Positions 12,989 through 31,177 of a DNA stretch of 33,472 nucleotides are shown piece by piece. The position numbers and the translations under genes were made by a program. Below the pieces are notes generated by a model. The model searched no databases and was not told where the DNA came from. It saw nothing but the letters and a program-made list of their open reading frames with translations. Positions within the stretch are counted from its first letter, which is position 1. Every line of letters starts with the position of its first letter. The stretch is from Planctomycetota bacterium (GTDB lineage: Bacteria > Planctomycetota > Planctomycetia > Pirellulales > Pirellulaceae): positions 1 to 33,472 of the forward strand of contig JBJTOW010000358.1 of NCBI GenBank assembly GCA_046074805.1. Direction: 5' to 3'.

Positions 12989-13001
12989 GATCGATTTTCC
13001 T

Positions 13002-14228: not shown

Positions 14229-14238
14229 AGGGAATCCG

Positions 14239-15168: not shown

Positions 15169-15219
15169 TCTAAAGCGACTCGAACAGGAACGCTGACTGC
15201 ATAAGAACCCGGAATGGAA

Positions 15220-16242
15220 CTACGCCATCCGACGTTTCGCCATCACTCCTCGACCGACCACGGTCCGATCCGACTCGACAGCGCGAAACGGCAAAATCCT
15301 CAGAGACCAAGTGGCCAACGAGACCGCGACCGCCAAGATCAGAGAACCGTTCGCCACATGGGCCGTCGTCACGAGCCCCTGCCACAGGCTGTTGGTTTGG
15401 ACCACAACACCCGCCGAAAAGTCCCATTCCCCAAGCCAAGTCGGCCACCCATATTTCACGATCCATGTCCCAATGCCCAACAGGATCTGGGCTGAGATCA
15501 AGGCCAAAATCGCCACCGCTCGACTGCCCAATTTTCGTCGTCCCCAAGCCGCCCGGACGAGCAGAACGCTGTGCACTGCCAGAACTCCGGCCATGACCCC
15601 ATGAAACACGAACACGCCGCGGAAGTACCCTGGCGTCGCGTTGACGGGCAGGTGCCGAATGGCAGCGCCGAGGACAAGCTGAAGATAGGCCAAAACGGCG
15701 GTGGTAACCGCCAGTCGCTGAACTATCGGACCCGCACGGTCCACGACCCGCTCGGATAATCGCCAATCCCGCGACGTGAACGCCAGAATCGCCACCGACA
15801 ACGCGAAAAAAGCAGGACCAACACAGCCGTGAATCATCGCCAGTTGGCGGTCATCGAGAATGACTCGCATCCCGCCCAGGACACCCTGCCCGACAACCGC
15901 CATCAGGGCGAGCGTTGCGACAATCCGCATCCACGAGCGGTCGTCTGTAAGCCAAACCGAAGTCGCCAGAGCGATCGCAATCAATCCGACGACGGCCCCT
16001 AAAAGCCGATGGCCGTGCTCGATGAATAAGTCAAATGGACCAGATACCCAGGTCTGCCACGGGTACAAAAACAAATTGTACCCGTAAGTGGAGGGCCAAT
16101 CCGGAACCGCCATACCAGCGTCGTAGGTCGTGACAAGACCACCGACCCAGATCAGGGGAAATGTCGAAGCAACAAGTGCCATCGCGGCTACACGAGTTGC
16201 CTTCGGCGCCGCCATCGATTTTCCACCATGACCTGAGTTCAC
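15220..16242 (-). CDS. ctaA: Haem A synthase (COX15/CtaA family)
   Basis: GGLVTTYDAGMAVPDWPSTYGYNLFLYP and FIEHGHRLLG motifs, about 8 TM helices, adjacent to ctaB. Confidence 0.85.
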   Translation of the reverse strand: MNSGHGGKSMAAPKATRVAAMALVASTFPLIWVGGLVTTYDAGMAVPDWPSTYGYNLFLYPWQTWVSGPFDLFIEHGHRLLGAVVGLIAIALATSVWLTDDRSWMRIVATLALMAVVGQGVLGGMRVILDDRQLAMIHGCVGPAFFALSVAILAFTSRDWRLSERVVDRAGPIVQRLAVTTAVLAYLQLVLGAAIRHLPVNATPGYFRGVFVFHGVMAGVLAVHSVLLVRAAWGRRKLGSRAVAILALISAQILLGIGTWIVKYGWPTWLGEWDFSAGVVVQTNSLWQGLVTTAHVANGSLILAVAVSLATWSLRILPFRAVESDRTVVGRGVMAKRRMA

Positions 16243-16279
16243 TTTGCCGTTTCCCTGCCGGATTACACCAAGTCGCGAA

Positions 16280-18085
16280 CTAGTGACCGCCAGCCGGCTT
16301 CGACTTCACGCCCGGCGGAGGTGGCTGCGTCTGCGGATAGTAATCCGTCGAGACCTCCGGCGAGCCGTACTCATAAGGACCGCGGTAAATGATTGGTTGG
16401 AAATCGAAATTCCCGTGGCCGGGCGGGCTTGGCGCCATCCATTCCAACGAATTGGCCTTCCATGGGTTGCGCCCAGCTCGCTCACCGAAAAACATGCTGT
16501 GGAAGAAATTGAAGGCGAAAATAGCCTGTGTCGCCACCATTCCTATGGCGCAAACCGTAATGAACTGATTCACAGGCTGGAGATGCTCAAAGATCTTGTA
16601 ATCGTATGGGTCGGCCAAACGGCGGGGGAATCCGACCGCGCCGAGCACGTGCATCAGGTAGAACGTCCCGTTGAGAAACACAAAGGTCAGAAAGAAGTGG
16701 ATCTTGCCGAGCGAATCGTTCATCATTCGCCCAAACATTTTGGGAAACCAAAAATAGATGGCTCCAAACACGGCCATCGCCGTGCCACCGAAAAGCACGT
16801 AGTGGAAGTGAGCCACAATGTAGTAAGTGTCGTGGATAAAAATGTCGACCGGTGTGGCCGCCATGAAGATCCCGGACAACCCTCCGATGACGAACATCGA
16901 AACGAACGACAAGGCGAACAGCATTGGCGTGTTAAACGTCAACCTGCCACCCCAGATCGTGCCTAGCCAGTTGAAAACCTTCACAGCGCTAGGCAACGCG
17001 ATCATCATTGTTGAGACCATAAACGCCATGCCGAGCAATGGCTGCATGCCCGAAACGAACATGTGATGGCCCCAGACGATGAAACCCAATCCGGCGATAC
17101 CGGATATCGAATAAACCATCGGTTTATAGCCGAAAATGGGTTTACGAGCGAAGCACGACATGATGTCGGAGACCATACCCATCGCCGGCAGAATCATGAT
17201 GTAAACAGCCGGATGGGAATAGAACCAGAATAAGTGCTGCCAAAGCAGTGGTTGTCCACCGCCGCTCGCCGCCGCTGAGTTGTTGACGACCAAGCCTTCG
17301 GGTAGGAAAAAGCCTGTATTGATCAATCGATCCGTCACCTGCATGAAACCCGCCGCCGTCAACACGGGCAATGCGAAGGCTTGCAGGATGGCGGTGATGA
17401 ACATCGCCCAAATCGTCAGCGGTAGCCGAAACATGGTCATGCCCGGCGCACGCATTTGAATGATGGTTGTCATATAATTGACGGAACCCATCATGGAGGA
17501 GACACCAACAAAGGTCACGCCGAGCAGCCACATCGTCTGGGATAGACCGCTCGATGGGGCCGCGTCTTGCATGACGGACAGCGGAGGGTAAGAGGTCCAC
17601 CCCGACCCCGCGCCATTTCCTGGCATGAAGAAACTAGAGCCGATGCAAAAGAATGCCGGCCACATGAACCAGTAGCTTAACATGTTCAATGTTGGGAACG
17701 CCATGTCGTCGGCACCGATCATGAGCGGGATCAAGTAGTTCCCGAACGCTCCGGCGAGGATCGGGATGATCACGAAAAAAATCATCACCGTCGCGTGCAT
17801 AGTGAACAGGGTCGTGTAAAACTCCGGAGCGATCTGGCCACCTTCGCCTGAAAACAACATCCGTCCGATAACGGGCATGTCGCTCCACTGCCAAGCCAGT
17901 TGCCAACGGATTCCCAATGCCAGCAACCCGCCCACCAAGAACCAAAGGAGGGTGGAAAACAGGAACTGTAAACCGATGATTTTGTGGTCTAACGAAAAGA
18001 CGTAAGTGCGGATAAACTTGCCAAGTTCCATTCCGCCCGCATGATCATGGCCATGCCCCAAGGCACCTGCCGGAACGCTAGTCAT
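16280..18085 (-). CDS. ctaD: Cytochrome c oxidase subunit I (haem-copper oxidase, A-type)
   Basis: 601 aa. LFWFYSHPAVYIMILPAMG (the HPxVY CuB/Tyr region), VWGHHMF (CuB His pair), HFHYVLFGG (haem ligand region). 8-nt overlap with ctaC. Confidence 0.95.
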   Translation of the reverse strand: MTSVPAGALGHGHDHAGGMELGKFIRTYVFSLDHKIIGLQFLFSTLLWFLVGGLLALGIRWQLAWQWSDMPVIGRMLFSGEGGQIAPEFYTTLFTMHATVMIFFVIIPILAGAFGNYLIPLMIGADDMAFPTLNMLSYWFMWPAFFCIGSSFFMPGNGAGSGWTSYPPLSVMQDAAPSSGLSQTMWLLGVTFVGVSSMMGSVNYMTTIIQMRAPGMTMFRLPLTIWAMFITAILQAFALPVLTAAGFMQVTDRLINTGFFLPEGLVVNNSAAASGGGQPLLWQHLFWFYSHPAVYIMILPAMGMVSDIMSCFARKPIFGYKPMVYSISGIAGLGFIVWGHHMFVSGMQPLLGMAFMVSTMMIALPSAVKVFNWLGTIWGGRLTFNTPMLFALSFVSMFVIGGLSGIFMAATPVDIFIHDTYYIVAHFHYVLFGGTAMAVFGAIYFWFPKMFGRMMNDSLGKIHFFLTFVFLNGTFYLMHVLGAVGFPRRLADPYDYKIFEHLQPVNQFITVCAIGMVATQAIFAFNFFHSMFFGERAGRNPWKANSLEWMAPSPPGHGNFDFQPIIYRGPYEYGSPEVSTDYYPQTQPPPPGVKSKPAGGH

Positions 18086-18923
18086 TTTCGGTGGCTCCTG
18101 TCTTCGGCTGGAAACCGCTTCGCTCCTGCTCGGCGTATTGCCCAGCCAGCCAAGCGTCGAATTTCTCTCGGCTCTCCAACGTCATTTTTCCACGCATCTT
18201 GTAGTGTCCCCAGCCGCACAACTCGGCACATACAATGTCATAAATTCCCGGCTTGTTGCCGTGGAACCAGACGAACTGCTTCATGCCTGGAACGACGTCT
18301 TGTTTCACCCGTACGTGCGGCAGGAAAAAGCTGTGGAGAACGTCCATGCTTTTGATCTGAATGACAACATCCTCATCGACCGGCAAATGAAGGTCATTCA
18401 CTTGGTGGACATCGTCAGGGGTGCCAATCACGTTGTCCTTACCGGCATAACGAATTCGCCATTCGAATTGCCGTCCCGTAACCTCCACGATCGGAGCCTT
18501 TAGCACATCGTCGTCCGTGCCTTCGATCCCATCTGGGCCGGCCTCCGCGACCGGACGACGCATTTTTTGGTCAGCCCAGGCGTTCATTTGGTAGATTGCG
18601 ATGAAGAGCAAAGTGGCGGCCGGTAGCACAGACCAAACTATCTCCAAAGCGTGGCTACCGTGCATGTAGACAGGAGGCTGGGCATTTTTCGCTGCGTCGT
18701 ACTTCCACATGAACCAGAACAACGCAACGCCAGTGCCTATGAAAATCACTCCAGTCAAGTACAGGATGAACATGAACAGCTGATCAACGACACCACCATA
18801 GTCGTTGACGTTTTCCGGCAACCAATGATCCCGAAATGGTCCGACACCAGCGATCGCGAACACGAAGGCGAGTGTTCCGAGGATCGGGACCGATAAAAAC
18901 AACAAGCTCCAAAACCGTCCCAC
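18078..18923 (-). CDS. ctaC: Cytochrome c oxidase subunit II (CuA subunit, no fused cytochrome c domain)
   Basis: Two N-terminal TM helices, then a cupredoxin domain with DVLHSFFLP and the CuA motif CAELCGWGHYKM. There is no CxxCH motif in the protein. Confidence 0.9.
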   Translation of the reverse strand: MGRFWSLLFLSVPILGTLAFVFAIAGVGPFRDHWLPENVNDYGGVVDQLFMFILYLTGVIFIGTGVALFWFMWKYDAAKNAQPPVYMHGSHALEIVWSVLPAATLLFIAIYQMNAWADQKMRRPVAEAGPDGIEGTDDDVLKAPIVEVTGRQFEWRIRYAGKDNVIGTPDDVHQVNDLHLPVDEDVVIQIKSMDVLHSFFLPHVRVKQDVVPGMKQFVWFHGNKPGIYDIVCAELCGWGHYKMRGKMTLESREKFDAWLAGQYAEQERSGFQPKTGATEND

Positions 18924-18938
18924 GTTGATTTCTCCCGC

Positions 18939-20210
18939 TTAAAGGCGATCGCGTGTGATTTGAGGCTGCTGCCGATCCTGTTTGCTCAACGATTCGTACG
19001 GCAAGCTTCGGACGTAGTCAACGATGCTCCAAATGTCATCTGGAGTAAGCCCCTTTTCATTTTCCGGCGTTTTCATAGGAACGGCTGGCATCGGTGTTCC
19101 GTCGATTCCGTTGGCGATTCGCCAGTACAGGTCGATGGGGCGTCGACCCCCGCGGTAAATGCCTTGTCGGAGATTTCGAGGGCGTATGTTCCTTGGCTCC
19201 AGAGCACCAAGGGCTAAGTACGTAGACAAATTCTTGGGGTTGGCGGGATCTAACTCTTTCGTCCAATCATCATAGTCATTGATTTGTCCATCGCCCAAAG
19301 CCGAATCGCCATGACACTTGACGCAGTTCGCAATCGAACCATAGAACAGTTCGCGGCCACGCGCTATCGACTTGGCACGAGCGTCCGGGTCCTCCCATCC
19401 ACTGCTTCGTTCTTCGATGGGTACCGCTAGACCGTCCGCTTCCAACCAAGGCTGAACAACCTCAGCGACGATCTCATTGAGCCGGGCGATTTTTCCGTTG
19501 TACACCGCCGGATTAGTCTCTTTCTGTGACGCGTCGAGGATGAGCTGCTCGCCAGCGTTGAGTTCAACTAGCTCATCTACCAGTCGTCGCTCCACCTCCC
19601 CTCGAAGCGACAGATACTTTACGTAGTGGACAAGCGATTCCACCTCGTCCTGGTCTAGCACTTTGAAAGAAGGCATCGCGGTGCCAGCCACGCCATCGTG
19701 CAAGATCTTCCGCAAGTCCTCGTGGGTCGGACGCTGCCCCTTCACAGTCGACTTAAACTTGAATCGGCCCATGCGGTAATCGCGTGGGTATGGGTTCAGG
19801 AAGGCGGACGTTGGTCCAAGACCGTCGCCGGTGATCCCATGGCAATGAACACAGTGCTCCCGATACAGACCGTGAGGTTGCCCACCCTTATCGCTCGCAA
19901 CTTTTCCGGAGGACATCTTCACACGCTCGATGTCCACGAGCGGAGCAAGATCAATGCCGGGTATTTGCGGGAGGTAAGGGTCATCCGGAGTGCCAAAATA
20001 CGCCGCCAGGATGTTAGCTATGTCAGCGGTCTGAGGTGCTTTAAATGGCTCGACTCCCTCATTTTCCTTGCGTTTCACGTAGACAAGGTTGCCACGAAAA
20101 CCGGCTTCGGGAGCGCCGCATCCGGCGACGAACGCCAACAGCAAACCGGCCGCCACAGAGTCCCGCACCGTCCACCTGGACAGCCGTGATCGAATGGATT
20201 CCGCTCGCAT
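18939..20210 (-). CDS. Dihaem c-type cytochrome, probable lipoprotein
   Basis: ORF 18939..20318 trimmed to the ATG at 20210 (MRAESIRSRLSRWTVRDSVAAGLLLAFVAGCG, lipobox-like). Two CxxCH motifs (CVHCHG, CVKCHG), each followed by a candidate Met ligand segment (GTAMP, GTPMP). Confidence 0.8.
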   Translation of the reverse strand: MRAESIRSRLSRWTVRDSVAAGLLLAFVAGCGAPEAGFRGNLVYVKRKENEGVEPFKAPQTADIANILAAYFGTPDDPYLPQIPGIDLAPLVDIERVKMSSGKVASDKGGQPHGLYREHCVHCHGITGDGLGPTSAFLNPYPRDYRMGRFKFKSTVKGQRPTHEDLRKILHDGVAGTAMPSFKVLDQDEVESLVHYVKYLSLRGEVERRLVDELVELNAGEQLILDASQKETNPAVYNGKIARLNEIVAEVVQPWLEADGLAVPIEERSSGWEDPDARAKSIARGRELFYGSIANCVKCHGDSALGDGQINDYDDWTKELDPANPKNLSTYLALGALEPRNIRPRNLRQGIYRGGRRPIDLYWRIANGIDGTPMPAVPMKTPENEKGLTPDDIWSIVDYVRSLPYESLSKQDRQQPQITRDRL

Positions 20211-20283
20211 AGACTTAACCTGTGTAGAAAAATGAGTATGCAGTCGACCGAGAGAGCAGTAAACGTGTTTCCAACCAAGCCTG

Positions 20284-21201
20284 CTACTGGAACAGCGTTC
20301 CGGCGACCTGGACCTCAAGCTTCGTCGTTTCCCCGGGTGTCAACGTCCGCTTGAAGCGGCCCTTGCCCCATTTCTCGGATGTTCCGTTCACCGTCACGTC
20401 CTGCAGGAAATTGGTTTTTTCTTGCCAAACGCGAAACTCAAGCTCAACGCCCGCCGGCAGGTTTGGAATTTCGAACGATCCGTCAGGCTTCGTCACCGCG
20501 AAGTACGAATTTTTACGGGTGATCATGTAGGCTTTCATCCAGGGATGGATGGCACAAGCTACCGGGAACGGTTGGTCTTCCTCCGCCTTCGGCTGGTAAA
20601 GGCCAGCCGCGTTGGACGGAATTGTTTGGTCGTACGCTGGGTTCTTCTTTGGCTTCAGACTCGTGTTGTGGCCAACAGGGTCGCTGTTCTTAATCCGGAT
20701 TGGCTGGGACGATTGAATCGCAAGCAACCGGGTTAGAAAGACGCATTCCTTTTGGTCGAATATCACCTCGTCAGCCTTGCCGGGCTTGGCGTCCGGATGC
20801 GTCCATGGCTCATCGTCTGGCAGTTTCTGAGAAACGAACACGAGGACGTTACCGATGCCACCTTCGGGCGAAATTACAAACTCTTGACTGAGGACCTGTT
20901 TGCCGCCTGGAGCACATACTCCTTGGTCTTTGTCGACCGACAGCGTTGCTGCTGACGGTCGATCGCCAGCTATCCTGAAAACGCCAGACAAGGTCGCCCA
21001 CCCTGTCGGCATGGCCGAAGGGGTCGTTGCAGAATCCGTACTCGCTCCTTCGCCGCCACCGGCTTCGAGCGCCGTTCGAAGCGATTTGGCCATCGCCAAG
21101 TCTGGCGACACATTGACAGGCAATCTGGGGCCACAGCCGTTAGCGGATGCAATGACGGAACCCGTCGCCAGCACCGCCATCGAAATCCAAGATTTTTTCA
21201 T
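20284..21201 (-). CDS. Cupredoxin-like (amicyanin-type loop) protein with a C-terminal beta-sandwich, probable lipoprotein; paralogue 1
   Basis: ORF 20284..21240 trimmed to the ATG at 21201 (MKKSWISMAVLATGSVIASANGCG). Candidate type-1 Cu ligands are DPVGHNT (His) and CAIHPWM (Cys-x2-His-x2-Met, as in the amicyanin CTPHPFM loop). Then FAVTKPDGSFEIPNLPAGVELEFRVWQE. Confidence 0.7.
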   Translation of the reverse strand: MKKSWISMAVLATGSVIASANGCGPRLPVNVSPDLAMAKSLRTALEAGGGEGASTDSATTPSAMPTGWATLSGVFRIAGDRPSAATLSVDKDQGVCAPGGKQVLSQEFVISPEGGIGNVLVFVSQKLPDDEPWTHPDAKPGKADEVIFDQKECVFLTRLLAIQSSQPIRIKNSDPVGHNTSLKPKKNPAYDQTIPSNAAGLYQPKAEEDQPFPVACAIHPWMKAYMITRKNSYFAVTKPDGSFEIPNLPAGVELEFRVWQEKTNFLQDVTVNGTSEKWGKGRFKRTLTPGETTKLEVQVAGTLFQ

Positions 21202-21291
21202 CGCCAGAACCTCGCGTAGCAACCGGTTACTTAGCCTCACCGCGGTCCGCCGACTTTGAGTCGGCGGCGGGCCAATGGAGCTTGCGTTCGC

Positions 21292-22089
21292 CTACTTCGA
21301 CAGTGTTTTCAGTGCGACCTTGAACGTACCCAAGTTGTTGGCACCTGCCTTGATCGTGAAATCCGCTCTTCCCTTGCTCCATTTTACCGTTTTACCGGCA
21401 CCATCCTTAACTTCCTGGATGAAACCAGCCCCTTCGTGCCAAATCTGGAATTGCCACTCTCCGGCTGGCAGCTTCGGAATCGTGACCGATCCGCTCGCAT
21501 CGCTTACCGCCGCGTAGGGGTTGTCGCGCACCAGCAACTTAGACTGCATCCATGGGTGTATCGAGCAGCTGACCGATGCCGGAAGACGTTCTTCTTTCTT
21601 GAACGATTGCTTCAGGAGTCCGCCGGCTGGAATGATTGGATTCACAGGCGGATTGTCCAAGACGTCGATTTTGGTGTTGTGGCCGATCGGATCGGAGTTT
21701 TTCAGGACAAGCGTTTGTGCGGTCCAGAGAACGGCGACGTGCGGTTCAAAACGGCAGCCTTTATTGTCTAGGACGACTTCGGTGCCCTTCATCTTTTCCA
21801 GGTCGGGGTGAATCGCCACTTTTTTACCGACCGCAGGCCGCAAATAGACGAAGACGTTGCCGATTCCGCCGCCCGGGCCAAATGCCAGGGTTTCGTCTAC
21901 CAGCTTTTCCTTACCACAGACTTGCTGGTCCTTGTTAATGGTGAGCGGCTTGGAGGCTGGTGCCGCTCCGTCGAGCACGAATTTTAGTGATAGGTCGCCC
22001 CAGGTTTGAGCGTTAGCATTCGCCGCATTCACAATGGCACATATGGCTACGACGAAAAAAACAATTTTACGCATCGGTTTTAACTCCAC
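21292..22089 (-). CDS. Cupredoxin-like (amicyanin-type loop) secreted protein; paralogue 2
   Basis: Signal peptide MRKIVFFVVAICAIVNAANANA; the start may be the ATG at 22074 rather than 22089. DPIGHNT and CSIHPWM motifs. AAVSDASGSVTIPKLPAGEWQFQIWHE is colinear with paralogue 1. Confidence 0.7.
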   Translation of the reverse strand: MELKPMRKIVFFVVAICAIVNAANANAQTWGDLSLKFVLDGAAPASKPLTINKDQQVCGKEKLVDETLAFGPGGGIGNVFVYLRPAVGKKVAIHPDLEKMKGTEVVLDNKGCRFEPHVAVLWTAQTLVLKNSDPIGHNTKIDVLDNPPVNPIIPAGGLLKQSFKKEERLPASVSCSIHPWMQSKLLVRDNPYAAVSDASGSVTIPKLPAGEWQFQIWHEGAGFIQEVKDGAGKTVKWSKGRADFTIKAGANNLGTFKVALKTLSK

Positions 22090-22119: not shown

Positions 22120-25100
22120 TTAGCCGCCACCGCCAGCAGCGGGCTTCTCCGTTGCGGGCGCTGCTTCCGCAGGTGGCTCGGGACTTGCTGGCGGCGCAGC
22201 CTGTTGGACGAGTGGTGCAACGAGCGTTTTGTCCTTGGCGAAATTGTCGTAGTTCATCAGCAAGTCCACCAGGGCGTCCACTTGTTCCAAGCTGGTTCCA
22301 TGATAAAGGTCTTGGGAGATACCGCCGAAGTTCTTCGTATCAGCTGGGTCGTAGGGAATGTTCACTGGCATGCTGGTGTATGGCAGAATCCGCTTTGGGT
22401 TCGCGATCCAATCTCGGAGATAACCAGGCCGCAGACGCTCGTAGATTCTCGCAAGGTTCGGTGCCTTCGCTCGGTCAGCACCCGTCGGCGAGTAGTCGCC
22501 GACAATATGGCATTTCACGCAGTAGTTGCTGTTCGTGATCATTCGCATTGCGTCTTGCAGGCGAGTGCGGTCGCTGCCAGCGGCGTCACTCGCCGGCTTT
22601 TCGGGCGTCACAACAGCCTTTGCTTGATAAGTTGTCTCTTTTTCGGCGAGATAGCTAGGCAGTCGATGTTCGGTTGCCGCGTAGGGAAACTCCGCTCCGT
22701 CCTTCCTCGCGAAATATTCCGCCAGGTCCGAAGCTTCCTCAGCGGACATGTTGAACTTCGGCATTCTCAGTACAGCAGCAGGTCGGATTGGGTACGGGTT
22801 GAGCAGGAAGTTGTGGAGCCACTGGGACTGCACCTTTTGTCCTTCTCCAACAAGAGGTGGTGGCACCCATGCCCACGATTCGGTTCCCTTTGCGGCTGGG
22901 TTAATCAGTTTTTCCCGCGCTGTTACGTGCGGCAGTAGGTATCGCGCCAACACGCCGCCCTCGGTCTCGGCCCGGTGCGTCAGTTTCGAGGCGGGAATGT
23001 TGATCTGCATGATGCCTGGTTCGTATTTCTGCCCATCAATTAGCGTTGGTTGCCAAAGCTCAAACGGATACGAAACAGTGTTGCGCTCGTAATCCCCGTC
23101 ATTCTCGACAGGATCACCTTCGACGTCGTTGACGACCGGCAAAGCATCGGCATCGTTTAGACCGGGCATGCCAGATAGATGAGCCTTAATCAGGCCAGCG
23201 GCGTTAGGCTTTTTTGACTTCGCTACGAATTCCGATGAAAAACTTGCGGCTAAGTAAGGATACTGGTTAGTCGCCGCCTGCTCTCCGTATTCGCCGGATT
23301 TAGCTGTGACTTCCCACCGCTCGGCTTCCAGCACGTGGCAGCCACCGCAGTTGTACTTTTCAAGAGCCTGTCGTCCCTTGATCCAGGCTAACTGTTCAGT
23401 GCTGGGCCTATAGACATACTTGGGCGCCGGTGGGTCCGACACGAGTCCCAAGACAAAGGTCATGATGGCCTCACGGTCGGCGTCCGAGAACGGAAACTTC
23501 GGCATCCGCAGTCGTTCGTTGTAACGTTTGTTTTCAGTCTTTTCGTAGTCGTAGCTGCGTGGTTCGGTCAGCTTTTGCCATAAGAATCCCTCCCGGTGGC
23601 CAGCCTCGATATGCTTTACGTAAAACTCAGGCGTCTTTTTTACCGGATCATGGTGCCGCGTGACTCCGTCATCGCCCGTGGAAACAAATTCGCCGCTCTT
23701 TACGACCCTACCACTTGCGTTTAGGTCTGCCTTGGATGGTGAAGTTGGCGATCCGCCGTTGGCAGCTGTGCCGTGGCCACCATGGCTATGACCATGCTTG
23801 TGCAGGAAGTGGGTGATATGCTCAAAGGCGAGCTTAGCTGGTTCTTTGCGACCCCAATCCGCCAATCCCGTTCCGATCGGCTTCGCGTCTTCGAATCCCG
23901 GAATATCGTGGCAACCAAAGCAGCCGTACTTAGCAATCGATTTACGACCGATGTAGTTAAGCTTCTGGCGACTCGACACTTCCTGGTTGGCTTCGAAGTC
24001 TGCGTCTGAAACCAACAGTTCCTTTTCCGCTCCCTTAAGCGTCTTCTCAAGCTTGGCTGGGACGCCGAACTTCACATACTTCGCGGCGGCTCCAACGTAG
24101 AAGGCTTCTTCGAGGTTTTGACGCGTCGCCTCCTCCAAGTCGCCTGCGACCGAATCGCTCAATCCAGTTGGTTGCCACTCTAGTTTCGAGGTCATCAGGT
24201 ATTCCACGATGTCCGCCACAGGATCGGTAACGTGGACAACATTGCCTTTTTCATCCTTGTGCTGGATGGGATCGAGATAGAGATCCGGCATGACTGTGCG
24301 TGCGTGATACTTGGTCGGCTTCTTGATCCAAGAATAAAGCCATTGGCGTCCATTCTTATTGCGATCCGCCGCGAACTTGCTTCCTAGTCCTGTTAGGTTG
24401 GGCCCCTGCATGACCTCCTTCGGATCTCGATAGCTTTTTATGTCATCAAAGTCACCGTGGTTATGGCACGCCAGGCAACCCCGCTCTTGGAAAGCAACCT
24501 TTCCTCGTTCGATTCGGGCAGACTGCTTTTCTTCCGGTGTGCCGCCAGGCTCATTCACTTCAGGTGGAGTTAGGAAGTCGAATTGCTGCGACCGATCCTG
24601 GAGGTAAGCCACCATTCCAGCGATCTCCACTTCTTCCATTTTCTCCGTTGCATGCGCCGCCTCGGCTTCTAAATGGCTCCATAGTTTAAAGAATTGCGGC
24701 ATTTTCGTGGATGGCCGGAAGTTCTTCGGCTCTCGGATCCAGTCGGCCAGGAAGTCCGTATCCGCCTTCTTGGCGACGAACCGCAAACTGGGCCCGGACT
24801 TTCTGAACTTACCGGGCGTCTCCTCGTCCTTCAGTAGTTCCGCGAGGCTGTGGGCTACAGTCGGGAAGACTGGATCCGCTGATTTGGCATCTTCGGCAAG
24901 ACGCGTAGCCAACTTTGCACGAGCTTCAGGTCTCTCTGGATTGGCGATGATCGCGTTGAGGTCAGAGAGATCGTTGGATGACAGTTTGTCCAGGAGATTG
25001 GCGGTTGACAAAACATGCTTCAGCTGCTGCGCCGCAGCGAAGTAGTTAGGTTCGAGTCGGACGTCAGGTCCCACTCGCCGTGTTGGGCCATCGAATCCTT

Positions 25101-26979
25101 TCATTTCATGGCACCCGTAGCAACCGTAGGTCAACATCAGGTCGTAGCCGTGCGTCAGTTTCGGCGCGGGTGTTTCCGGGAATCGCGGACTTGCTTCGAG
25201 CTCCGTGACATCGTGGTGGCACTTCAAGCACGCCGCTTCAGAGAACCGCTTCGCGTACATGGGGAATATCCAATGCGGATTGTCATGCCAGCCATGTTCT
25301 CGCGACCACAACTCTTGTTGTCGTTCGGAATCTGGCGTATGGGACGCCCATTTAAACTGGGTCGCGCTGCCCTGTCCCTCGTGGCAGACGGTGCATGCGA
25401 ACGTTTGCAACTTATGTGGACTTGTCGATCCAACAAATAGGTCCAGACGCGGATGAGATGTGTACGGATTGGCGAAACCTCGGCGAATCTCCACGACGAC
25501 TGGCTTACCAAAATCGGCGGTGGATAACAGCATTCGTTCGACTTCGCGAGGAGAGTCCACGACGTTGCCGTTGACGCTAATGACGGTGTCGCCGACAGAT
25601 ACGCCCGGCGATGGCGATTCTGTGCCGTCTTTCCCCGCCTCGAGCACTGAACGCCGCAACGATTCACCGGTCGATTTGGATTTCTGCGAGGCGGACAGAG
25701 TCGGTTCCGCCGTTGCGGCGAGTGAGTTTGGCATTACCAAAGCAACGGTCACATCGTCGCGTTGGACAAGCCCTTCTTCAGCCAAGCGGAAACCGTAAAC
25801 CTTTTCGAGCAGATCCTGCTCGACCGATGTGACAAGTTTCTCACCTGCGGCGATCCGAGCGGTCCTAGTTGTTTCGACGTCTTTCCTCGCAGTGTCGATG
25901 TCGGCCTTCGGAGGTACAGCAATGCTGAGCGAGTAAATACGAGCACCGTCGAATAGCGGCTTGTCTGCCGTGCCCGGGAGTGTTTTCTCCATGGCTTGAT
26001 GGCACGTCGTGCAGCGATCGAAGCGTCGAACTTTGCGGAAGTTGTAGTCAATCGTAAGGTCGTCACTCCACAAGTTATCGATTTTCCGCGGTGAATTGAA
26101 CGCATCCAGAACAGGCAGCGTCAACCACTTCTTCCCTAGGTACGGGAAGGTACTCGAGAAGTACGTCATCTGCCTCTCCGAGTAGCCGGACTGCAGCTTT
26201 CGGAGTTCGGAGCGGTTGTCGTCCAACGCCTTTTTGGCGATGTCTTCGTTGGTTCGCGCGATTCGCACGATCGATTGCAGCTTTTTCCGGTGTTCGTCGG
26301 CGGCTTGGTACTTGATCTTCAGCGACTCGAGTTCCGCCGCTACTCGGTCCACCTTCTCCTGCAAGGCGTCCCGTTCCGCCTGAGGGAGGTTATCACGGAC
26401 AGCGAGATCGAGTTTCGCGCGAACGGCATCAAGATCCGCGGACTTGAATTTCCGGGCATTCAGCGCGTTGTCTTCGATGAATTTCGCTTGGTTGACAATG
26501 CGAGTGAGCGCATCGATGACGCGATCATGGGCGTCCTCCGCTGCTTCAATCAGTTTACCTTCCGCTTTCGACGGTTCGGAACCAAGCTCCGAAGCCGCCT
26601 TCGAAGCGGCGGCGTTCAACTGCTCAATTCCCAGGGCGTTGAAAAGCTTTACGCTCGTGCCGTCCTCCGCAGATCGACGGTCCGCTTCGGCCTTGAATTC
26701 ACTCAGCAGATCGTCGGAAACGGGGGCGGTTCGCGCCAACGCCAAGGAATCGGCAAGTTGCTCATGCGCCCGAATGGCGTCGTTAGTCTGGTACTGCAAT
26801 TGCAGCCATGAGTTATACGACAAATCCATGTGCCGCGCCGTATCTTGATACGGTTTCCACTCGCGGTCGTGATCTGCGATGAACATCCAGGCGGTGGACA
26901 GTAACAGCGCGAACGCTGAAACGCCGAAGACGCGATGCAGAAGCTTTTGATTACGCCAAGTCTGTTCGGAAGCCGGCAT
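22120..26979 (-). CDS. Giant (1619 aa) membrane-anchored octahaem c-type cytochrome with an N-terminal coiled-coil and a PDZ-like domain
   Basis: N-terminal TM helix (VFGVSAFALLLSTAWMFIA), then about 230 aa rich in heptad-like charged/Ala/Leu sequence. Eight CxxCH motifs: CTTCH, CTVCH, CLKCH, CYGCH, CLACH, CFGCH, CGGCH, CVKCH. PDZ-like GVSVGDTVISVNGNVVDSPREVERMLL...VVVEIRRG. Recurrent MP(x)F segments (KMPQF, VMPDLY, RMPKFPF, RMPKFNM, SMPVNIP) suggest His/Met class-I-like modules. Confidence 0.85.
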   Translation of the reverse strand: MPASEQTWRNQKLLHRVFGVSAFALLLSTAWMFIADHDREWKPYQDTARHMDLSYNSWLQLQYQTNDAIRAHEQLADSLALARTAPVSDDLLSEFKAEADRRSAEDGTSVKLFNALGIEQLNAAASKAASELGSEPSKAEGKLIEAAEDAHDRVIDALTRIVNQAKFIEDNALNARKFKSADLDAVRAKLDLAVRDNLPQAERDALQEKVDRVAAELESLKIKYQAADEHRKKLQSIVRIARTNEDIAKKALDDNRSELRKLQSGYSERQMTYFSSTFPYLGKKWLTLPVLDAFNSPRKIDNLWSDDLTIDYNFRKVRRFDRCTTCHQAMEKTLPGTADKPLFDGARIYSLSIAVPPKADIDTARKDVETTRTARIAAGEKLVTSVEQDLLEKVYGFRLAEEGLVQRDDVTVALVMPNSLAATAEPTLSASQKSKSTGESLRRSVLEAGKDGTESPSPGVSVGDTVISVNGNVVDSPREVERMLLSTADFGKPVVVEIRRGFANPYTSHPRLDLFVGSTSPHKLQTFACTVCHEGQGSATQFKWASHTPDSERQQELWSREHGWHDNPHWIFPMYAKRFSEAACLKCHHDVTELEASPRFPETPAPKLTHGYDLMLTYGCYGCHEMKGFDGPTRRVGPDVRLEPNYFAAAQQLKHVLSTANLLDKLSSNDLSDLNAIIANPERPEARAKLATRLAEDAKSADPVFPTVAHSLAELLKDEETPGKFRKSGPSLRFVAKKADTDFLADWIREPKNFRPSTKMPQFFKLWSHLEAEAAHATEKMEEVEIAGMVAYLQDRSQQFDFLTPPEVNEPGGTPEEKQSARIERGKVAFQERGCLACHNHGDFDDIKSYRDPKEVMQGPNLTGLGSKFAADRNKNGRQWLYSWIKKPTKYHARTVMPDLYLDPIQHKDEKGNVVHVTDPVADIVEYLMTSKLEWQPTGLSDSVAGDLEEATRQNLEEAFYVGAAAKYVKFGVPAKLEKTLKGAEKELLVSDADFEANQEVSSRQKLNYIGRKSIAKYGCFGCHDIPGFEDAKPIGTGLADWGRKEPAKLAFEHITHFLHKHGHSHGGHGTAANGGSPTSPSKADLNASGRVVKSGEFVSTGDDGVTRHHDPVKKTPEFYVKHIEAGHREGFLWQKLTEPRSYDYEKTENKRYNERLRMPKFPFSDADREAIMTFVLGLVSDPPAPKYVYRPSTEQLAWIKGRQALEKYNCGGCHVLEAERWEVTAKSGEYGEQAATNQYPYLAASFSSEFVAKSKKPNAAGLIKAHLSGMPGLNDADALPVVNDVEGDPVENDGDYERNTVSYPFELWQPTLIDGQKYEPGIMQINIPASKLTHRAETEGGVLARYLLPHVTAREKLINPAAKGTESWAWVPPPLVGEGQKVQSQWLHNFLLNPYPIRPAAVLRMPKFNMSAEEASDLAEYFARKDGAEFPYAATEHRLPSYLAEKETTYQAKAVVTPEKPASDAAGSDRTRLQDAMRMITNSNYCVKCHIVGDYSPTGADRAKAPNLARIYERLRPGYLRDWIANPKRILPYTSMPVNIPYDPADTKNFGGISQDLYHGTSLEQVDALVDLLMNYDNFAKDKTLVAPLVQQAAPPASPEPPAEAAPATEKPAAGGGG

Positions 26980-27010: not shown

Positions 27011-28384
27011 CTAGAAATTCAGCAGGTACTCTGGGATCGCCACGAAGTATTTCAGGTTGATGGACCATCTCAGGACCATCTTGATGGGTAGCAGCAACAT
27101 GCTTAGTAGCAAGTTGGTCATCACCATATACCGTATGAAACCCATCTTGATAAACAGGTCACGGAAAAACGGCAGCACAGCCATGGCAGGCGGCAATGCG
27201 GCGAAGTACATGAAAACCAGTATGATTCCGGGGGACTCACGCAGCGCTATGTACGCGATTTTCACGAGCAGGCTGGAACCTTCCGGTGCAGCGGGGCGCG
27301 GCATTTGCAGAAGGTCGATCCAGAAGAACATCGAGAGGTCGATGTTGTTCAGCGCTTCGACTTTGTGGGTGTCCCATTTTTCGTAGAAGCCGAAGAAGTT
27401 CCAGTTCGGACCACGGAGGAAAGTACCCATCACAATCAGGGTGATCCACAACACGAGGAAGCCGAATTGGAAGGTTAAGTATGCGAACTTGCGCTCGTTG
27501 ATCGTGTAGTAGCCCATACCCTTTTTGTTGAAATCGATGTACGGGATCGCCATCAATCCAACGACTACGGTTCCCGGAAGGGCGACGCCCGCCATCCACG
27601 GATCGTAGTAGACGAGCATTTCTTGCAGGCCAAGAAAGTACCAAGGGGCCTTGGAAGGGTTCGGTGTTTTGACCGCGCTGGCGGGTTCCTCTAGTGGTGC
27701 CTGTAGAGCCAACGCCCACACGACCAGGAAGGCGGTCAGGGCCACCATGCAGATAAGTTCGGTGTAAACCAAGTCCGGCCAGGTTAAAACCTTTTCCGAG
27801 TCGAGCGCTTCAAGGGGTGGCTCACCGCGTGCCGTTCGTTCGTCGTTGATGACGGCTCGGTAGCTGGCCAACCAGGTAAAGAATCCCAGGAGGAAGACGA
27901 GGCCGACGATGGGGACATTGTCCGGCTTGGTTACGATGCTGGCGAAGTCCATGTCGGTCATCGAGAAACCCATCACCAACAGCGATAGGTTAAGCCCGGT
28001 CCAGGCGACCCAGGGTTTCACGAAAAAGTTGCGGCCAGCGTATAGCCCGACAAGCAGTAGCAAGCTTCCGACCGAGTAAACAACGGGTCCCATGATCGCG
28101 TCCGCGCCTTCCCGCAGGAAGGCGGGCAGCGAGACAATGCCTAACGAAGCTTTGTTCCCGCTGAAGGCAAGGGGCGACATGACTAAGTAGGCGATGGACA
28201 CGAGCAGCCAAACTAGGGCTGTCGTCACCGGAAATTTGCGCAGCTTAAAAAGCAACCGCGACTGGTTGGTTTGCCACAGGTACAGGGAGGCGAAACCATT
28301 CATCATGGCTAGGGCGACATAGTAGTAGCCCAGAAAGCCGCCGATGTGGTGAAGAAATTCTTCTTCGCTGACGTGACCGTGCAT
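27011..28384 (-). CDS. Cytochrome b C-terminal / b6f subunit-IV-like protein, expanded to about 10 TM helices
   Basis: 457 aa. The central region has the Qo-site motif in the form NPSKAPWYFLGLQEMLVYY (PEWY equivalent), followed by subunit-IV-like helices. About five extra TM helices are N-terminal and two are C-terminal. It lies 15 nt downstream of the cytochrome b6-like gene. Confidence 0.8.
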   Translation of the reverse strand: MHGHVSEEEFLHHIGGFLGYYYVALAMMNGFASLYLWQTNQSRLLFKLRKFPVTTALVWLLVSIAYLVMSPLAFSGNKASLGIVSLPAFLREGADAIMGPVVYSVGSLLLLVGLYAGRNFFVKPWVAWTGLNLSLLVMGFSMTDMDFASIVTKPDNVPIVGLVFLLGFFTWLASYRAVINDERTARGEPPLEALDSEKVLTWPDLVYTELICMVALTAFLVVWALALQAPLEEPASAVKTPNPSKAPWYFLGLQEMLVYYDPWMAGVALPGTVVVGLMAIPYIDFNKKGMGYYTINERKFAYLTFQFGFLVLWITLIVMGTFLRGPNWNFFGFYEKWDTHKVEALNNIDLSMFFWIDLLQMPRPAAPEGSSLLVKIAYIALRESPGIILVFMYFAALPPAMAVLPFFRDLFIKMGFIRYMVMTNLLLSMLLLPIKMVLRWSINLKYFVAIPEYLLNF

Positions 28385-28399
28385 GAGTGTGAATCCCGT

Positions 28400-29176
28400 T
28401 TACAACGGACCGCTGATACCGCCGTCCTTGCGCACACGCCAGAAGTGGATGGCGATGAGGAGCGAGGCGGCCAGTGGAATGGCGATGCAGTGCAAAATGT
28501 AGAACCGGTTCAAGGTTTCCTCGCCCACGAACCGGGCGCCAAGCAAACCAAAGCGGGCGTCCGAGGCTGCGGTGATCATGTCGATCCCGTCGACGGTCAA
28601 CAACGCCGCACCGGGGCCCTCGTGACCGAGGACGGGATGGGCTCTTGCCATGTTGGAACCAACGGTGATAGCCCAAATGGCCAACTGATCCCAAGGAAGC
28701 AGATATCCCGTGAATGAGAGTAGCAGGGTTAACAGGAGCAAAATGACGCCGATCACCCAGTTGAATTCTCGAGGCGGCTTGTAACTTCCTGTGAGAAACA
28801 CTCGATACATGTGAAGCCATACGGTGATCACCATGGCGTGCGCGCCCCACCGGTGAACTTCGCGGAGAATACCCAGCGAAGCAACGTCGCGCAACGCCAG
28901 GATGTCCGTATAGGCCCATTCGAGCGTAGGACGGTAATAGAACATCAGCAGCACGCCGGTGACTGTTTCCACCAGGAAGAGGAAAAACGTCACACCGCCC
29001 ATGCACCAAGTGTAGCTGAGTGCGATTCCTTGCTTTTTGATCGATACCGGGTGGAGATGAAGGAAAAAATTCGTGAGCATCACCACGATCCGATTTCGCC
29101 GGTCAACCGGCATCGGATGACGGAAAATGCTTTTCCAGATCTGGGACTCACGAATGACTTCGCTGAGCGATGGCAT
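28400..29176 (-). CDS. Cytochrome b6-like protein (cytochrome b N-terminal four-helix domain)
   Basis: [69 protein letters not shown] closely parallels the b6 helix B-D region, including the haem-ligand His residues. The second His pair region is [23 protein letters not shown]. Confidence 0.9.
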
Positions 29177-29371: not shown

Positions 29372-30553
29372 CTATGTTGGCACGAAAGACGATGTGTCCT
29401 TCCACTGCCCTGTTTCCTCGTGGAAGACACGACTCTTGTCAACTTCCAACTGGCCATCATCCGAAACCTTGATCGCGTAGCGTTCAAGCGGTCGTGGAGC
29501 CGGTCCCTCGAAGTTGACGCCGTCCTTATAAAAACCGCTTCCATGGCATGGGCATTTGAATTTCTGTTCTGCTTCAAGCCAATTAGGAGTGCACCCCAGG
29601 TGCGTGCAAACAGTCTTCAGTGCGAAGATCTGGGATTGGCCTTCGTACTCGTGCTTGACCACCCATACGCCGAACTGGGCTTTGAAACGTTCATCAACTT
29701 GGCCTGGCGCCAGGGTGTCGGGGAACCCGACTTTGAACTTCGTCGGCGGTTCGGTGAGTATGTTGGGGAAGAAGAATCGGGCGAGGCCGAGAACCCACAA
29801 GAGGTGAGTCACCGCCAGCGACGTGAAACCGAGTGCGAGAGAGGATCCGGCGATCATCGACGACACGGAGGCGAAAAAGCCGCGACGCGATTCCTCTTTT
29901 TTGCCTTTGGCGGCAGGTTTAGTCTGGGCATACTCGGGCTTCGCCGGCATCGGCGGCGCTTCGAGCTTTTTCTTCGCGGGAGCGGTTTCGATGCCTTTTT
30001 CCTTGGCTTCCGCTTTTGACACGGGGCCCGGCTTGGCCGCACCAACTCCCCGTGCCGCCGCGAGGATACTCGCCGTGTCCAGCGCGGCTGGTTTCGCGGG
30101 GGTGGCTCCTCCTTCGGCCTTCACGGCTGCAGGCTTGGTGGATGCTTTAGCGATGGCCGGCTTCGCCGCCGCAGTCGGGGACTCTGTAGTTTTGGTGGTG
30201 GTAGGCTCCGAGGCCACTACATCGGCAGCGGGTACGCCCGCAGTCGCCTCGCTCCCGCCCGCTTTAGCAGCCTTGGCCGCTCGGGCTGCCGCCAGAATAT
30301 CCGCTGTGCTCATGGGCCCTGGCTTGGGCTTGGATACGCTCGCCGTCCCTGCGGGTGTCGGGGTAGATGCCGGACCAGCAGGGGCAGACGGGGCTGTTTC
30401 GGGCGAAGGCTCGCTGGCGGCCTTGGCAGGTGCTTCGGTCGTCGCCGCTGTGGGAGCGGCAGTCGTGGTGGCCGCCGGGGGCGCACCGCCCGCCTTGTTG
30501 GCCCGGGCCGCAGCGAGAATCTCGGCGACCGACATTTTCTTGTTGTCAGCCAT
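29372..30553 (-). CDS. Rieske [2Fe-2S] protein with an Ala/Pro/Thr/Lys-rich N-terminal extension of about 220 aa preceding an internal twin-arginine/TM anchor
   Basis: Rieske boxes CTHLGC and CPCHGS. SRRGFFASVSSMIAGSSLALGF (Tat-like motif plus helix) sits at residues about 222-245. The N-terminal region holds three copies of an xILAAAR motif. Confidence 0.9.
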   Translation of the reverse strand: MADNKKMSVAEILAAARANKAGGAPPAATTTAAPTAATTEAPAKAASEPSPETAPSAPAGPASTPTPAGTASVSKPKPGPMSTADILAAARAAKAAKAGGSEATAGVPAADVVASEPTTTKTTESPTAAAKPAIAKASTKPAAVKAEGGATPAKPAALDTASILAAARGVGAAKPGPVSKAEAKEKGIETAPAKKKLEAPPMPAKPEYAQTKPAAKGKKEESRRGFFASVSSMIAGSSLALGFTSLAVTHLLWVLGLARFFFPNILTEPPTKFKVGFPDTLAPGQVDERFKAQFGVWVVKHEYEGQSQIFALKTVCTHLGCTPNWLEAEQKFKCPCHGSGFYKDGVNFEGPAPRPLERYAIKVSDDGQLEVDKSRVFHEETGQWKDTSSFVPT

Positions 30554-30799: not shown

Positions 30800-31177
30800 C
30801 ACTTCCACATGTTTTACCGGACCAGCTTCCGCGCTGTCAACTGCCAAGCTGTTCATTCACCACCGCCAAGTCGTCTCCGCCTGGAAGGGAAATTCGCCGT
30901 AGGCCTCTGACAGCCGCTTCTGGACCATCCTACAATCGCCGTGCACGATCGATTGGGGACCTATGAAGAAGTCAGACCGTCAGCGGGCCAGGTGCTCGCC
31001 TTGGAAACCGGGGAAATCGGTACGTCCATAACCTACCCACGGAGTATCGTTGGGCGGAATCTCGCTGTCGTCCGTCGATTGTGACTGATTCGCTTCCGCC
31101 ACGGGCTTCGTGGACTAGGCGGCAACGGGCGTGTGTTTTCTCGCTGTGTGGCTCGACTGGTAAGGTTTGGAACCGAT

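Follow-up and report, generated by a model that had tools for sequence, protein, structure and literature searches.

Which protein takes electrons from a Rieske/cytochrome b complex when its gene cluster encodes neither a cytochrome c1 nor a cytochrome f? The question is raised by a stretch of 33,472 nucleotides (nt) from a Planctomycetota bacterium of the Pirellulaceae (contig JBJTOW010000358.1, assembly GCA_046074805.1), referred to here as the window. On the minus strand, where all features described below lie unless stated otherwise, the gene order is Rieske iron-sulfur protein, cytochrome b6-like protein, subunit-IV-like protein (SUIV), an octahaem cytochrome c (22120..26979), two proteins with a C-x2-H-x2-M motif, and a dihaem cytochrome c, followed by CoxB, CoxA, CtaA, CtaB, CoxC and CoxD and then by an ABC transporter, SCO1 and DUF420. 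Among the window proteins scanned, none was found to be a cytochrome of the c1 or f type, as an earlier note on this DNA had stated, and the octahaem protein has no match to cytochrome c1 (PF02167) or cytochrome f (PF01333) at E<=1. That note took the octahaem protein, by its position, for the electron exit of the complex. The analysis leads us to the view that it is probably the c-type subunit of a planctomycete Rieske/cytochrome b6-like menaquinol oxidase, replacing c1 or f and serving as electron exit.

Judging from its sequence, the open reading frame at 22120..26979 encodes one real polypeptide of 1619 amino acids (aa). It is free of internal stops, full-length homologues nearly always carry the same number of haem motifs and the start is conserved. 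The stop codon of the SUIV gene occupies positions 27011-27013 and the octahaem ATG is at 26979, so that translation and measurement of the gap agree with the length and with the 31-nt distance from the cytochrome b genes first reported. A Shine-Dalgarno-like GGGAGG precedes the ATG by 8-13 nt, and the start codon is correct, as the sequence M1-P2-A3-x-E5 is kept in at least 95% of homologues. The calculated mass is 180 kDa for the apoprotein and ~185 kDa with eight haems, which revises upwards the ~175 kDa given previously.

The eight CxxCH motifs of the protein, at aa 323, 529, 584, 620, 835, 1020, 1211 and 1487, consume all 16 of its cysteines, against a chance expectation from its composition of 0.005 motifs, and no CxxCK or other atypical haem motif is present in the sequence. 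Two of the motifs lie in near-duplicate YGC[YF]GCH segments, YGCYGCHEMKGF at aa 617-628 and YGCFGCHDIPGF at aa 1017-1028, and the modules surrounding them are homologous by profile comparison (hhalign 96-97%). Segments of the form MP[QK]F follow haems 4, 6 and 7 (aa 760, 1159 and 1406), with MPD (aa 897) after haem 5 and MPV (aa 1537) after haem 8. The motif count, the duplicated modules and the recurrence of MP(x)F had each been noticed before, and each stands.

More telling than the motifs themselves is the pattern of candidate sixth ligands, which was read from an alignment of 227 diverse octahaem members, architectural variants included. Outside the CxxCH motifs, the only histidines that are 100% invariant are H509, H522 and H547, situated just before and inside the block of haems 2-4, and the only 100% invariant methionines are M760, M897, M1159, M1406 and M1537, which sit in the MP motifs downstream of haems 4-8, within class-I-like modules. 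Three His and five Met make eight sixth ligands, and all eight haems are therefore predicted to be six-coordinate. The conserved residues imply three haems with bis-His and five with His/Met coordination; haems 1-3 would be the bis-His centres and haems 4-8 the His/Met centres, with the pairing of each His to its haem being presumptive. Such six-coordination, if correct, points to electron transfer rather than catalysis, and an invariant ligand candidate for every haem fits the suggestion, made in the earlier note, of a long haem wire.

The same pattern bears on a different explanation, namely that the octahaem protein is a catalytic multihaem enzyme or an entry module that oxidises a periplasmic substrate such as Fe(II) or, in a SoxX-like manner, a sulfur compound, and feeds the oxidase or, running in reverse, the quinone pool. 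A SoxX model of NCBIfam (TIGR04485) does score 70.6 bits against a cut-off of 61, and SoxX proteins are the best PDB relatives of the C-terminal domain. However, the cut-off is passed only by adding up three partial matches to class-I domains in a protein of 1619 aa, a SoxX proper being a monohaem partner of SoxA, ~80-140 aa long and encoded in a sox cluster. Neither the window nor the related loci contain SoxA/YZ/B genes, and a SoxX identity was rejected. In addition, there is no HAO- or NrfA-type match by Pfam, NCBIfam, PDB profile or Foldseek, and with canonical motifs only and an invariant sixth ligand per haem no open site is predicted. Catalysis of the SoxX, HAO or Nrf type was rejected on ligand pattern and gene context, and we regard the broader idea of an enzyme or entry module as highly improbable.

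Evidence that the protein belongs with the Rieske/b module comes from synteny. When the window proteins were compared by tblastn with the best 80 genome loci, gene order and strand were identical in every locus long enough to show them, with the Rieske gene syntenic in 65 loci. Divergent octahaem members could also be traced to their contigs, and here Rieske, cytochrome b and SUIV genes lie upstream wherever the contig extends that far. Thus, in all loci that reach upstream, the octahaem gene directly follows these three genes on the same strand, the co-location expected of the c-type subunit of a Rieske/b complex, and the position of c1 or f assigned to it in the earlier note is upheld.

Some loci are reduced in an informative way. 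In the case of L084, only the Rieske, b, SUIV and octahaem genes are present; the genes after them, among them one for a sulfatase, are unrelated, and neither a dihaem cytochrome c nor a cupredoxin-like gene adjoins this core. The four-gene core argues that the octahaem protein belongs with the Rieske/b module and not with the oxidase, and it leaves the octahaem protein as the only c-type candidate encoded there for acceptor of the Rieske electron. Loci L085 and L086 have, besides this core, a single cupredoxin-like gene and that of the dihaem c, with no oxidase genes, and L091 and L092 have Rieske, b, SUIV, octahaem, cupA (the first of the C-x2-H-x2-M genes), dihaem c, CtaA and CtaB, with no CoxBAC.

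These loci also weigh on the notion that the octahaem protein is an electron hub of the periplasm, anchored in the membrane and expressed together with the Rieske/b complex without being a stable subunit of it. Such a hub would serve several enzymes in the large planctomycete periplasm, while the lipoprotein dihaem c or some cytochrome with its gene elsewhere would be the true acceptor of the Rieske electron. Eight haems, three of them bis-His centres, exceed what a replacement for c1 needs, a PDZ domain (see below) suggests binding of partner C-termini, and most loci have a dihaem c gene nearby. Against this stand the lack of a dihaem c or cupredoxin-like gene beside the L084 core, the high conservation of the transmembrane helix and its flanks, and a position right after SUIV that is invariant across very divergent members. 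Furthermore, the Kuste4569-4574 complex of Kuenenia, which contains a multihaem subunit, has been reported to co-migrate as a whole (PMC12954380). A hub of this kind is, in our estimate, quite unlikely.

The octahaem family is large, widespread and uncharacterised. A word-indexed search returned 273 relatives. Of these, 120 were listed, and the 117 full-length proteins among them, which span 1535-1949 aa and 43-89% identity, all have exactly eight CxxCH motifs. When 1.84 billion representatives were searched exhaustively by HMMER with aa 1-1200 as query, 2492 matches reached E<=1e-3 and 693 clusters reached E<=1e-30; among the matches listed, 82 of the 84 representatives of at least 1250 aa again carry exactly eight. 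Overall, full-length homologues range from 1158 to 1977 aa and, down to ~30% identity, nearly all have exactly 8 CxxCH. A scan by sequence pattern of one genome per GTDB species found a relative in at least 554 species genomes.

With respect to taxonomy, the best 80 genomes bear the label Planctomycetota or that of a group within it (Pirellulales, Pirellulaceae, Planctomycetaceae, Planctomycetia, Lacipirellulaceae and similar), the lone exception being one named only 'bacterium', and the matches to two divergent queries are named as Pirellulales, Thermoguttaceae, Rhodopirellula or unclassified Planctomycetia/Planctomycetota. One match is from a metagenome-assembled genome (MAG) labelled Candidatus Nealsonbacteria and is probably contamination. 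No Brocadiales name occurs among the named matches of three homologue searches. Two MAGs labelled Candidatus Kuenenia (L031 and L067) carry the octahaem gene after Rieske-b-SUIV, in L067 with dihaem c, CoxB and CoxA downstream as well; these labels may reflect binning or labelling error rather than anammox biology. In source records the homologues are variously named 'hypothetical protein', 'c-type cytochrome', 'cytochrome c2', 'cytochrome c551/c552', 'PDZ domain-containing protein', 'mono/diheme cytochrome c family protein' or 'cbb3-type cytochrome oxidase cytochrome c subunit', and no description of the family was found in the searchable literature, reviews included.

Whole-protein scans with Pfam and NCBIfam gave domain-level matches only, and a PDB sequence-profile search with the family alignment returned PDZ relatives only; the architecture is described here module by module. 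The haem-1 module spans aa 281-355 (25915..26139), with CTTCH at aa 323-327 (nt 25999-26013); its aa 281-320 are among the most conserved stretches of the protein (0.80), the near-signature 'RFDRCTTCH' served as the pattern of the genome scan, and AlphaFold2 (AF2) places a beta-rich module around haem 1. Haems 2-4 form a c7/c3-like block at aa 505-640 (25060..25467) that includes H509, H522 and H547. Pfam Cytochrome_C7 (PF14522) matches aa 581-627 at 27.7 bits against a cut-off of 24.8, with MtrC II/IV and c3 below their cut-offs; closely spaced CxxCH motifs, a profile match and invariant additional His together identify a multihaem block of the c7/c3 type.

The remaining modules are class-I-like. 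That of haem 4 continues through aa 641-800 (24580..25059), with M760 of MPQF as distal ligand candidate and weak FixO/CcoO matches at aa 726-797, and it is mutually homologous with the modules of haems 5, 6 and 8 (hhalign 96-97%). The haem-5 domain, at aa 815-935 (24175..24537; CLACH 835, distal M897), is matched over aa 823-878 by Pfam Cytochrom_C (PF00034; E 9.5e-10, 40.1 against 21.3 bits). The haem-6 module (aa 1000-1195, 23395..23982; CFGCH 1020, distal M1159) contains a His-rich, variable and disordered loop at aa 1054-1113 (23641..23820; pLDDT, the predicted local distance difference test, 30-36) with 45-51% gaps across the family. The haem-7 module (aa 1200-1440, 22660..23382; CGGCH 1211, distal M1406) has a beta-rich insert at ~1216-1340 in the AF2 model. 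Lastly, the haem-8 domain (aa 1478-1585, 22225..22548; CVKCH 1487, distal M1537) is SoxX/CcoO-like: it has an NCBIfam SoxX-type match, and its family profile finds in the PDB SoxX (1.6e-6), a SCO1-cytochrome c (5.5e-6), CcoO (2e-3) and Aquifex c1 (6kls_C, 9e-3). The assignment of these modules to class I thus draws on the PF00034 match, the SoxX profile match, the five Met in MP motifs and the homology between modules.

The AF2 model of aa 500-1619 folds these modules into one compact, confident assembly (pLDDT 82; pTM, the predicted template modelling score, 0.84), in which only the first ~43 residues, the loop at aa ~1065-1113 and the tail are disordered. Foldseek found no global PDB relative of this model, the best matches being to single class-I domains at E>=0.1, namely of SoxX and, non-significantly, of QcrC (7q21_C, E 1.6) and Aquifex c1 (6kls_C).

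At the other end of the protein, the sole hydrophobic segment (aa 17-35) corresponds to an AF2 helix at aa 11-37 (26869..26949), and both hydropathy and the model therefore back the single N-terminal transmembrane helix of the earlier note. Its orientation by charge bias is N-in. The N-terminus and this helix are among the best conserved parts (identity 0.58-0.71), which is what would be expected of a helix packed into a complex and which favours a packed anchor over a cleaved signal peptide. The helix is flanked by H15 on the cytoplasmic and H37 on the periplasmic side, kept in 91-97% of members; these residues could be ligands or contact residues inside the membrane complex.

Beyond the anchor, AF2 (aa 1-560; pLDDT 87, pTM 0.75) predicts a periplasmic, elongated helical bundle at aa 42-269 (26173..26856; pLDDT mostly >90), with helices at 42-63, 66-82, 89-101, 108-115 and 118-130, at 141-195, and at 200-241 and 243-269. 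These three long helical stretches (42-130, broken, 141-195 and 200-269) are read as an elongated multi-helix segment. The long coiled coil of about 230 aa described previously is real as a helical segment, but a single two-stranded coil is not what AF2 predicts. The sequence of the bundle is poorly conserved across the family, and its Foldseek matches are to long helical bundles of a generic kind, among them F-BAR, AhlC and ClyA (E~0.02). We propose no role in membrane curvature, as the F-BAR/ClyA-like matches were judged non-specific (E~0.02, TM-score 0.18/0.35).

Between haems 1 and 2, AF2 models a mixed alpha/beta domain at aa ~396-500 (25480..25794), for which several lines of sequence and structural comparison support a PDZ fold. 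The protein's own Pfam scores are under threshold (PDZ_2 and PDZ_6 at 17.8 and 16.8 against 27 bits). The family profile nevertheless matches PDZ domains of DegQ and S2P in the PDB (E~2e-3), Foldseek gives PDZ matches with probability 0.99-1.0 and a TM-score (target) of 0.5-0.72, and PF13180, PF17820 and PF00595 are precomputed in many homologues, so that the PDZ-like block of the earlier note is supported as a fold. In the close family, G396 and G403 of its 'YGFRLAEEG' loop are invariant.

A census of 402 full-length members indicates how far these accessory modules can be dispensed with. The PDZ domain is absent from its canonical site in 25 (haem 1-haem 2 spacing of 50-98 aa against ~150-250) and the long bundle in 28 (haem 1 at aa ~105-195 against ~250-330), and none of the 402 lacks both. 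One protein without PDZ at the usual site (P0318, locus L088) has a PDZ_2 domain at aa 720-809, after the haem-5 domain (34.8 against 27 bits), which suggests independent acquisition or relocation. Variability between lineages places the bundle and the PDZ domain outside the electron-transfer core, and the retention of at least one of them in every member points to selection and fits a docking or stabilising role, a speculative assignment.

If the PDZ domain binds a partner, a possible ligand is the C-terminal tail of SUIV. This protein of 457 aa (27011..28384; Pfam Cytochrom_B_C) is enlarged: where a canonical subunit IV has 3 helices, it has at least 8 hydrophobic segments. It contains an APWY motif of the quinol-oxidation (Qo) site in 75 of 78 loci. 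Its C-terminus reads IPE[YF]x[LI]N[FL]-COOH in 78 of 78 loci with a canonical PDZ domain and should be periplasmic by hydropathy count. Four loci without the canonical PDZ have IPEWFFN[VI] or IPEYLFYF instead. The tail is conserved with or without PDZ; the last residue differs in 3 of the 4 PDZ-less loci, three of which are probably one clade, and the comparison ignores phylogeny.

Upstream of SUIV, the cytochrome b6-like protein, equivalent to the N-terminal half of cytochrome b (28400..29176; Pfam Cytochrome_B, 3e-39), carries the CxGG haem-ci motif in 67 of 70 loci. The Rieske protein (393 aa, 29372..30553; Pfam Rieske) has the cluster-binding boxes CTHLGC and CPCHGSGF, of which box II keeps the potential-raising Ser and has Phe where high-potential Rieske proteins have Tyr. 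Published mutational work ties these Ser/Tyr residues to redox potential. With Ser kept and Tyr replaced by Phe, the sequence suggests an intermediate-to-high potential, acceptable to His/Met haems; the same residues are discussed in PMC12954380. The Rieske protein of the window also bears an Ala/Pro/Thr-rich N-terminal (cytoplasmic) extension of ~220 aa with three '[ST]xA[ED]ILAAAR..K' repeats, followed by a twin-arginine signal, 'SRRGFFASV'. In L084, L085, L091 and L092 it is only 185-201 aa long and the extension is absent.

Downstream, cupA (21292..22089) and cupB (20284..21240) encode two secreted paralogues, 37% identical to each other, each with a putative type-1 copper site and a CarboxypepD_reg-like beta-sandwich. 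The motif C[NSA]IHPWM occurs in 74 of 74 homologues and GHN in ~63 of 74, a combination reminiscent of an amicyanin-type type-1 copper site. There is no Pfam or NCBIfam match above threshold and no PDB sequence match, Cupredoxin_1 being found sub-threshold only. The two proteins look like an undescribed, putative cupredoxin family tied to the Rieske/b complex, so that, of the adjacent cupredoxins reported earlier, the conserved C-x2-H-x2-M motif is secure and the cupredoxin assignment stays putative. The next gene (18939..20318) encodes a CcoP-like dihaem cytochrome c (two Pfam Cytochrom_C domains, NCBIfam ccoP-like), which has two CxxCH motifs in 63 of 64 loci; it is probably a lipoprotein, and its translation is likely to begin near 20210. 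It is followed by the aa3-type oxidase genes CoxB, CoxA, CtaA, CtaB, CoxC and CoxD (12467..18923; Pfam COX2, COX1, COX15-CtaA, UbiA, COX3 and COX4_pro). CoxB has a CuA motif conserved across loci and no fused cytochrome c domain.

Taken together, these components suggest the following mechanism. The N-terminal helix would anchor the octahaem protein in the cytoplasmic membrane beside the b6-like protein and the enlarged SUIV, with the remaining ~1580 residues and their eight covalent, six-coordinate haems in the periplasm. Quinol would be oxidised at the APWY Qo site, after which the Rieske cluster would reduce one of the octahaem haems, and the electron would hop from haem to haem through the compact C-terminal assembly. 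Exit would be to the two cupredoxin-like proteins and the lipoprotein dihaem c, and from there to CuA of the aa3 oxidase, in line with the conservation of the CuA motif, the dihaem c and the C-x2-H-x2-M proteins as downstream partners. The bundle and the PDZ domain may act as non-redox accessories for docking or stabilisation. What we infer is that the haems are bound, how the protein lies in the membrane, that it associates with Rieske/b, which haem receives the electron first, in what direction and sequence it then travels, and which partners take it up. The earlier proposal of an electron exit in place of c1 or f is supported by comparative evidence (synteny, L084 and the ligand pattern), and the physical association is predicted.

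Several points weigh against this assignment. Gene adjacency does not amount to proof of stable association, and the case is built on sequence, synteny and fold predictions. Three bis-His haems, usually low in potential, are awkward to place on a downhill path from a Rieske protein with Ser, and could form a side branch instead. Similarly, twelve redox centres between Rieske and CuA far exceed the need, and another role for part of them is possible. Finally, some lineages have no oxidase structural genes at the octahaem locus (L084, L085/86 and L091/92), and the final acceptor may therefore differ between lineages.

A more specific arrangement, compatible with a c-type subunit that replaces c1 or f, is that the octahaem protein is the backbone of a hard-wired III-IV respirasome from Rieske to aa3, in which cupA, cupB and dihaem c are fixed and no diffusible carrier is used, resembling actinobacterial QcrC or ActA/ActE in an assembly of alternative complex III (ACIII) with caa3. 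Here, the super-operon Rieske-b-SUIV-octahaem-cupA-cupB-dihaem c-CoxBA-CtaAB-CoxCD, present in every long locus of the close family, the lack of a cytochrome c domain on CoxB, and the weak domain-level Foldseek matches to QcrC 7q21_C are all suggestive. In addition, CoxC (13002-14246) has a charged, helix-prone insert of ~200 aa (aa ~145-345) between its third and fourth hydrophobic segments, of 112-299 aa in related loci, the length of which is weakly correlated with that of the octahaem bundle (Spearman 0.42, p 0.005, n=44, phylogeny ignored); the loci of bundle-less lineages (L091/L092) have no CoxC. However, this correlation may reflect shared ancestry, the bundle and PDZ domain are dispensable in some lineages, and the Rieske-b-SUIV-octahaem core occurs without nearby oxidase structural genes in the reduced loci named above. 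We regard such a respirasome as possible but doubtful.

A still more detailed version makes the octahaem protein a spine in which the PDZ domain clamps the SUIV tail IPE[YF]xLN[FL]-COOH and/or the bundle docks on the complex, the bundle pairs with the CoxC insert, and ~12 fixed centres (8 haems, 2 Cu and 2 haems) lead from Rieske to CuA with no diffusible carrier, the bis-His haems acting as a branch or buffer to other partners. We consider this combination rather unlikely.

Multihaem replacement of cytochrome f has been described in the anammox planctomycete Kuenenia stuttgartiensis, where the hexa- and octahaem cytochromes c Kuste4573 and Kustd1485 take its place in two b6f-like Rieske/b complexes (PMC12954380). 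AlphaFold 3 models put the multihaem transmembrane helices in the same position in both complexes, and Kustd1485 is large, with long alpha-helices that wrap the complex (PMC12954380). These complexes include an NAD(P) oxidoreductase, one of them has an HAO-like octahaem protein as well, and electron bifurcation has been proposed (PMC12954380). The likeness to the system described here, from the same phylum, extends to a split cytochrome b of the b6 type, an enlarged SUIV, the place of f being taken by a multihaem cytochrome c with a membrane anchor (in Kustd1485 also large and with long helices), and many haems without obvious purpose, the comparison being by description and not by sequence. 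In contrast, the system described here belongs to aerobic Planctomycetia and has as partners cupredoxin-like proteins, a dihaem c and an aa3 oxidase. The statement in the earlier note that no characterised protein has the octahaem architecture is fair, yet the anammox hexa- and octahaem subunits are a published precedent for the replacement of cytochrome f (PMC12954380). In one divergent lineage (L085, 5032-6918 and 3556-4920, and L086), the genes immediately before Rieske-b-SUIV-octahaem on the same strand encode an FAD-dependent oxidoreductase and a 628-aa iron-sulfur protein of the Fer4_5 type, and recall the NAD(P) oxidoreductase modules of the anammox complexes.

Other known systems are less close. 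Cytochromes c1 and f share the cluster position and the presumed role of Rieske acceptor, and the haem-8 module weakly matches Aquifex c1, but they are monohaem proteins with a C-terminal anchor, as opposed to eight CxxCH motifs and an N-terminal anchor. Dihaem c subunits are found in Actinobacteria, epsilon-proteobacteria and heliobacteria. For instance, actinobacterial QcrC (PDB 7q21) is a multi-haem, class-I-derived subunit that replaces c1, in a menaquinol system with linked III/IV genes; it differs in carrying two haems on ~250-280 aa and in being anchored at the C-terminus, as opposed to eight haems on 1619 aa and anchoring at the N-terminus in the octahaem protein, which the NCBIfam QcrC model (NF050122) does not match. 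In ACIII, pentahaem ActA and monohaem ActE form a periplasmic chain from bis-His multihaem to His/Met haem that carries quinol electrons to a haem-copper oxidase, sometimes in a supercomplex. ACIII has no Rieske protein or cytochrome b, however, its quinol site being in an NrfD-like subunit, and no match of ActA to the octahaem protein was found in sequence or fold (PDB profile, Foldseek). Thus, multihaem replacement of c1/f is not new as a concept; it is the octahaem family that is new to description.

Planctomycetia are abundant aerobic heterotrophs of oceans, soils and lakes, and we know of no biochemical study of their respiratory chain. The present data point to an entire bacterial class in which the quinol:cytochrome c oxidoreductase is built around a subunit of ~185 kDa with eight haems. 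The predicted pattern of three bis-His and five His/Met haems is fixed, the PDZ domain and the bundle are optional, and the subunit has no relative of known structure. Such a subunit adds one more to the known answers of Rieske/b complexes to the 'c1/f problem', is a target for cryo-electron microscopy and complexome work, and bears on the question, raised by anammox bacteria, of why planctomycete complexes have so many c-type haems. In practical terms, hundreds of entries now called 'hypothetical protein', 'c-type cytochrome' or 'PDZ domain-containing protein' become nameable as the cytochrome c subunit of this complex.

Some minor features of the window remain. His-rich patches of the HGH type occur in four proteins of the operon, at the N-terminus of CoxC (~14200-14246), in the CoxD-like protein (~12940-12988), in CoxA (~18030-18085) and in the octahaem protein at aa 1054-1070 (23770-23820). 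The last of these, reported earlier and present as HFLHKHGHSHGGHG at aa 1057-1070, is partly conserved and lies inside the low-confidence loop of the haem-6 module. By topology, three of the patches would be in cytoplasmic N-termini and one in the periplasm; they may serve in metal handling or as a proton antenna.

On the downstream flank of the respiratory operon, the gene for a DUF1501 protein (4712-6061) adjoins the gene for a 929-aa PSCyt2/PSD1 (DUF1549/DUF1553) protein (6080-8869) that has a charged helical insert and an N-terminal CNGGTCH. PSCyt2/PSD1 and DUF1501 are a common planctomycete gene pair of unknown function. On the other side, purD (glycinamide ribonucleotide synthetase, 31133-32497, plus strand) is divergent from the Rieske gene, and it is likewise so in the distant, bundle-less loci L091 and L092, an arrangement common to distant lineages which argues that the chromosomal neighbourhood is old.

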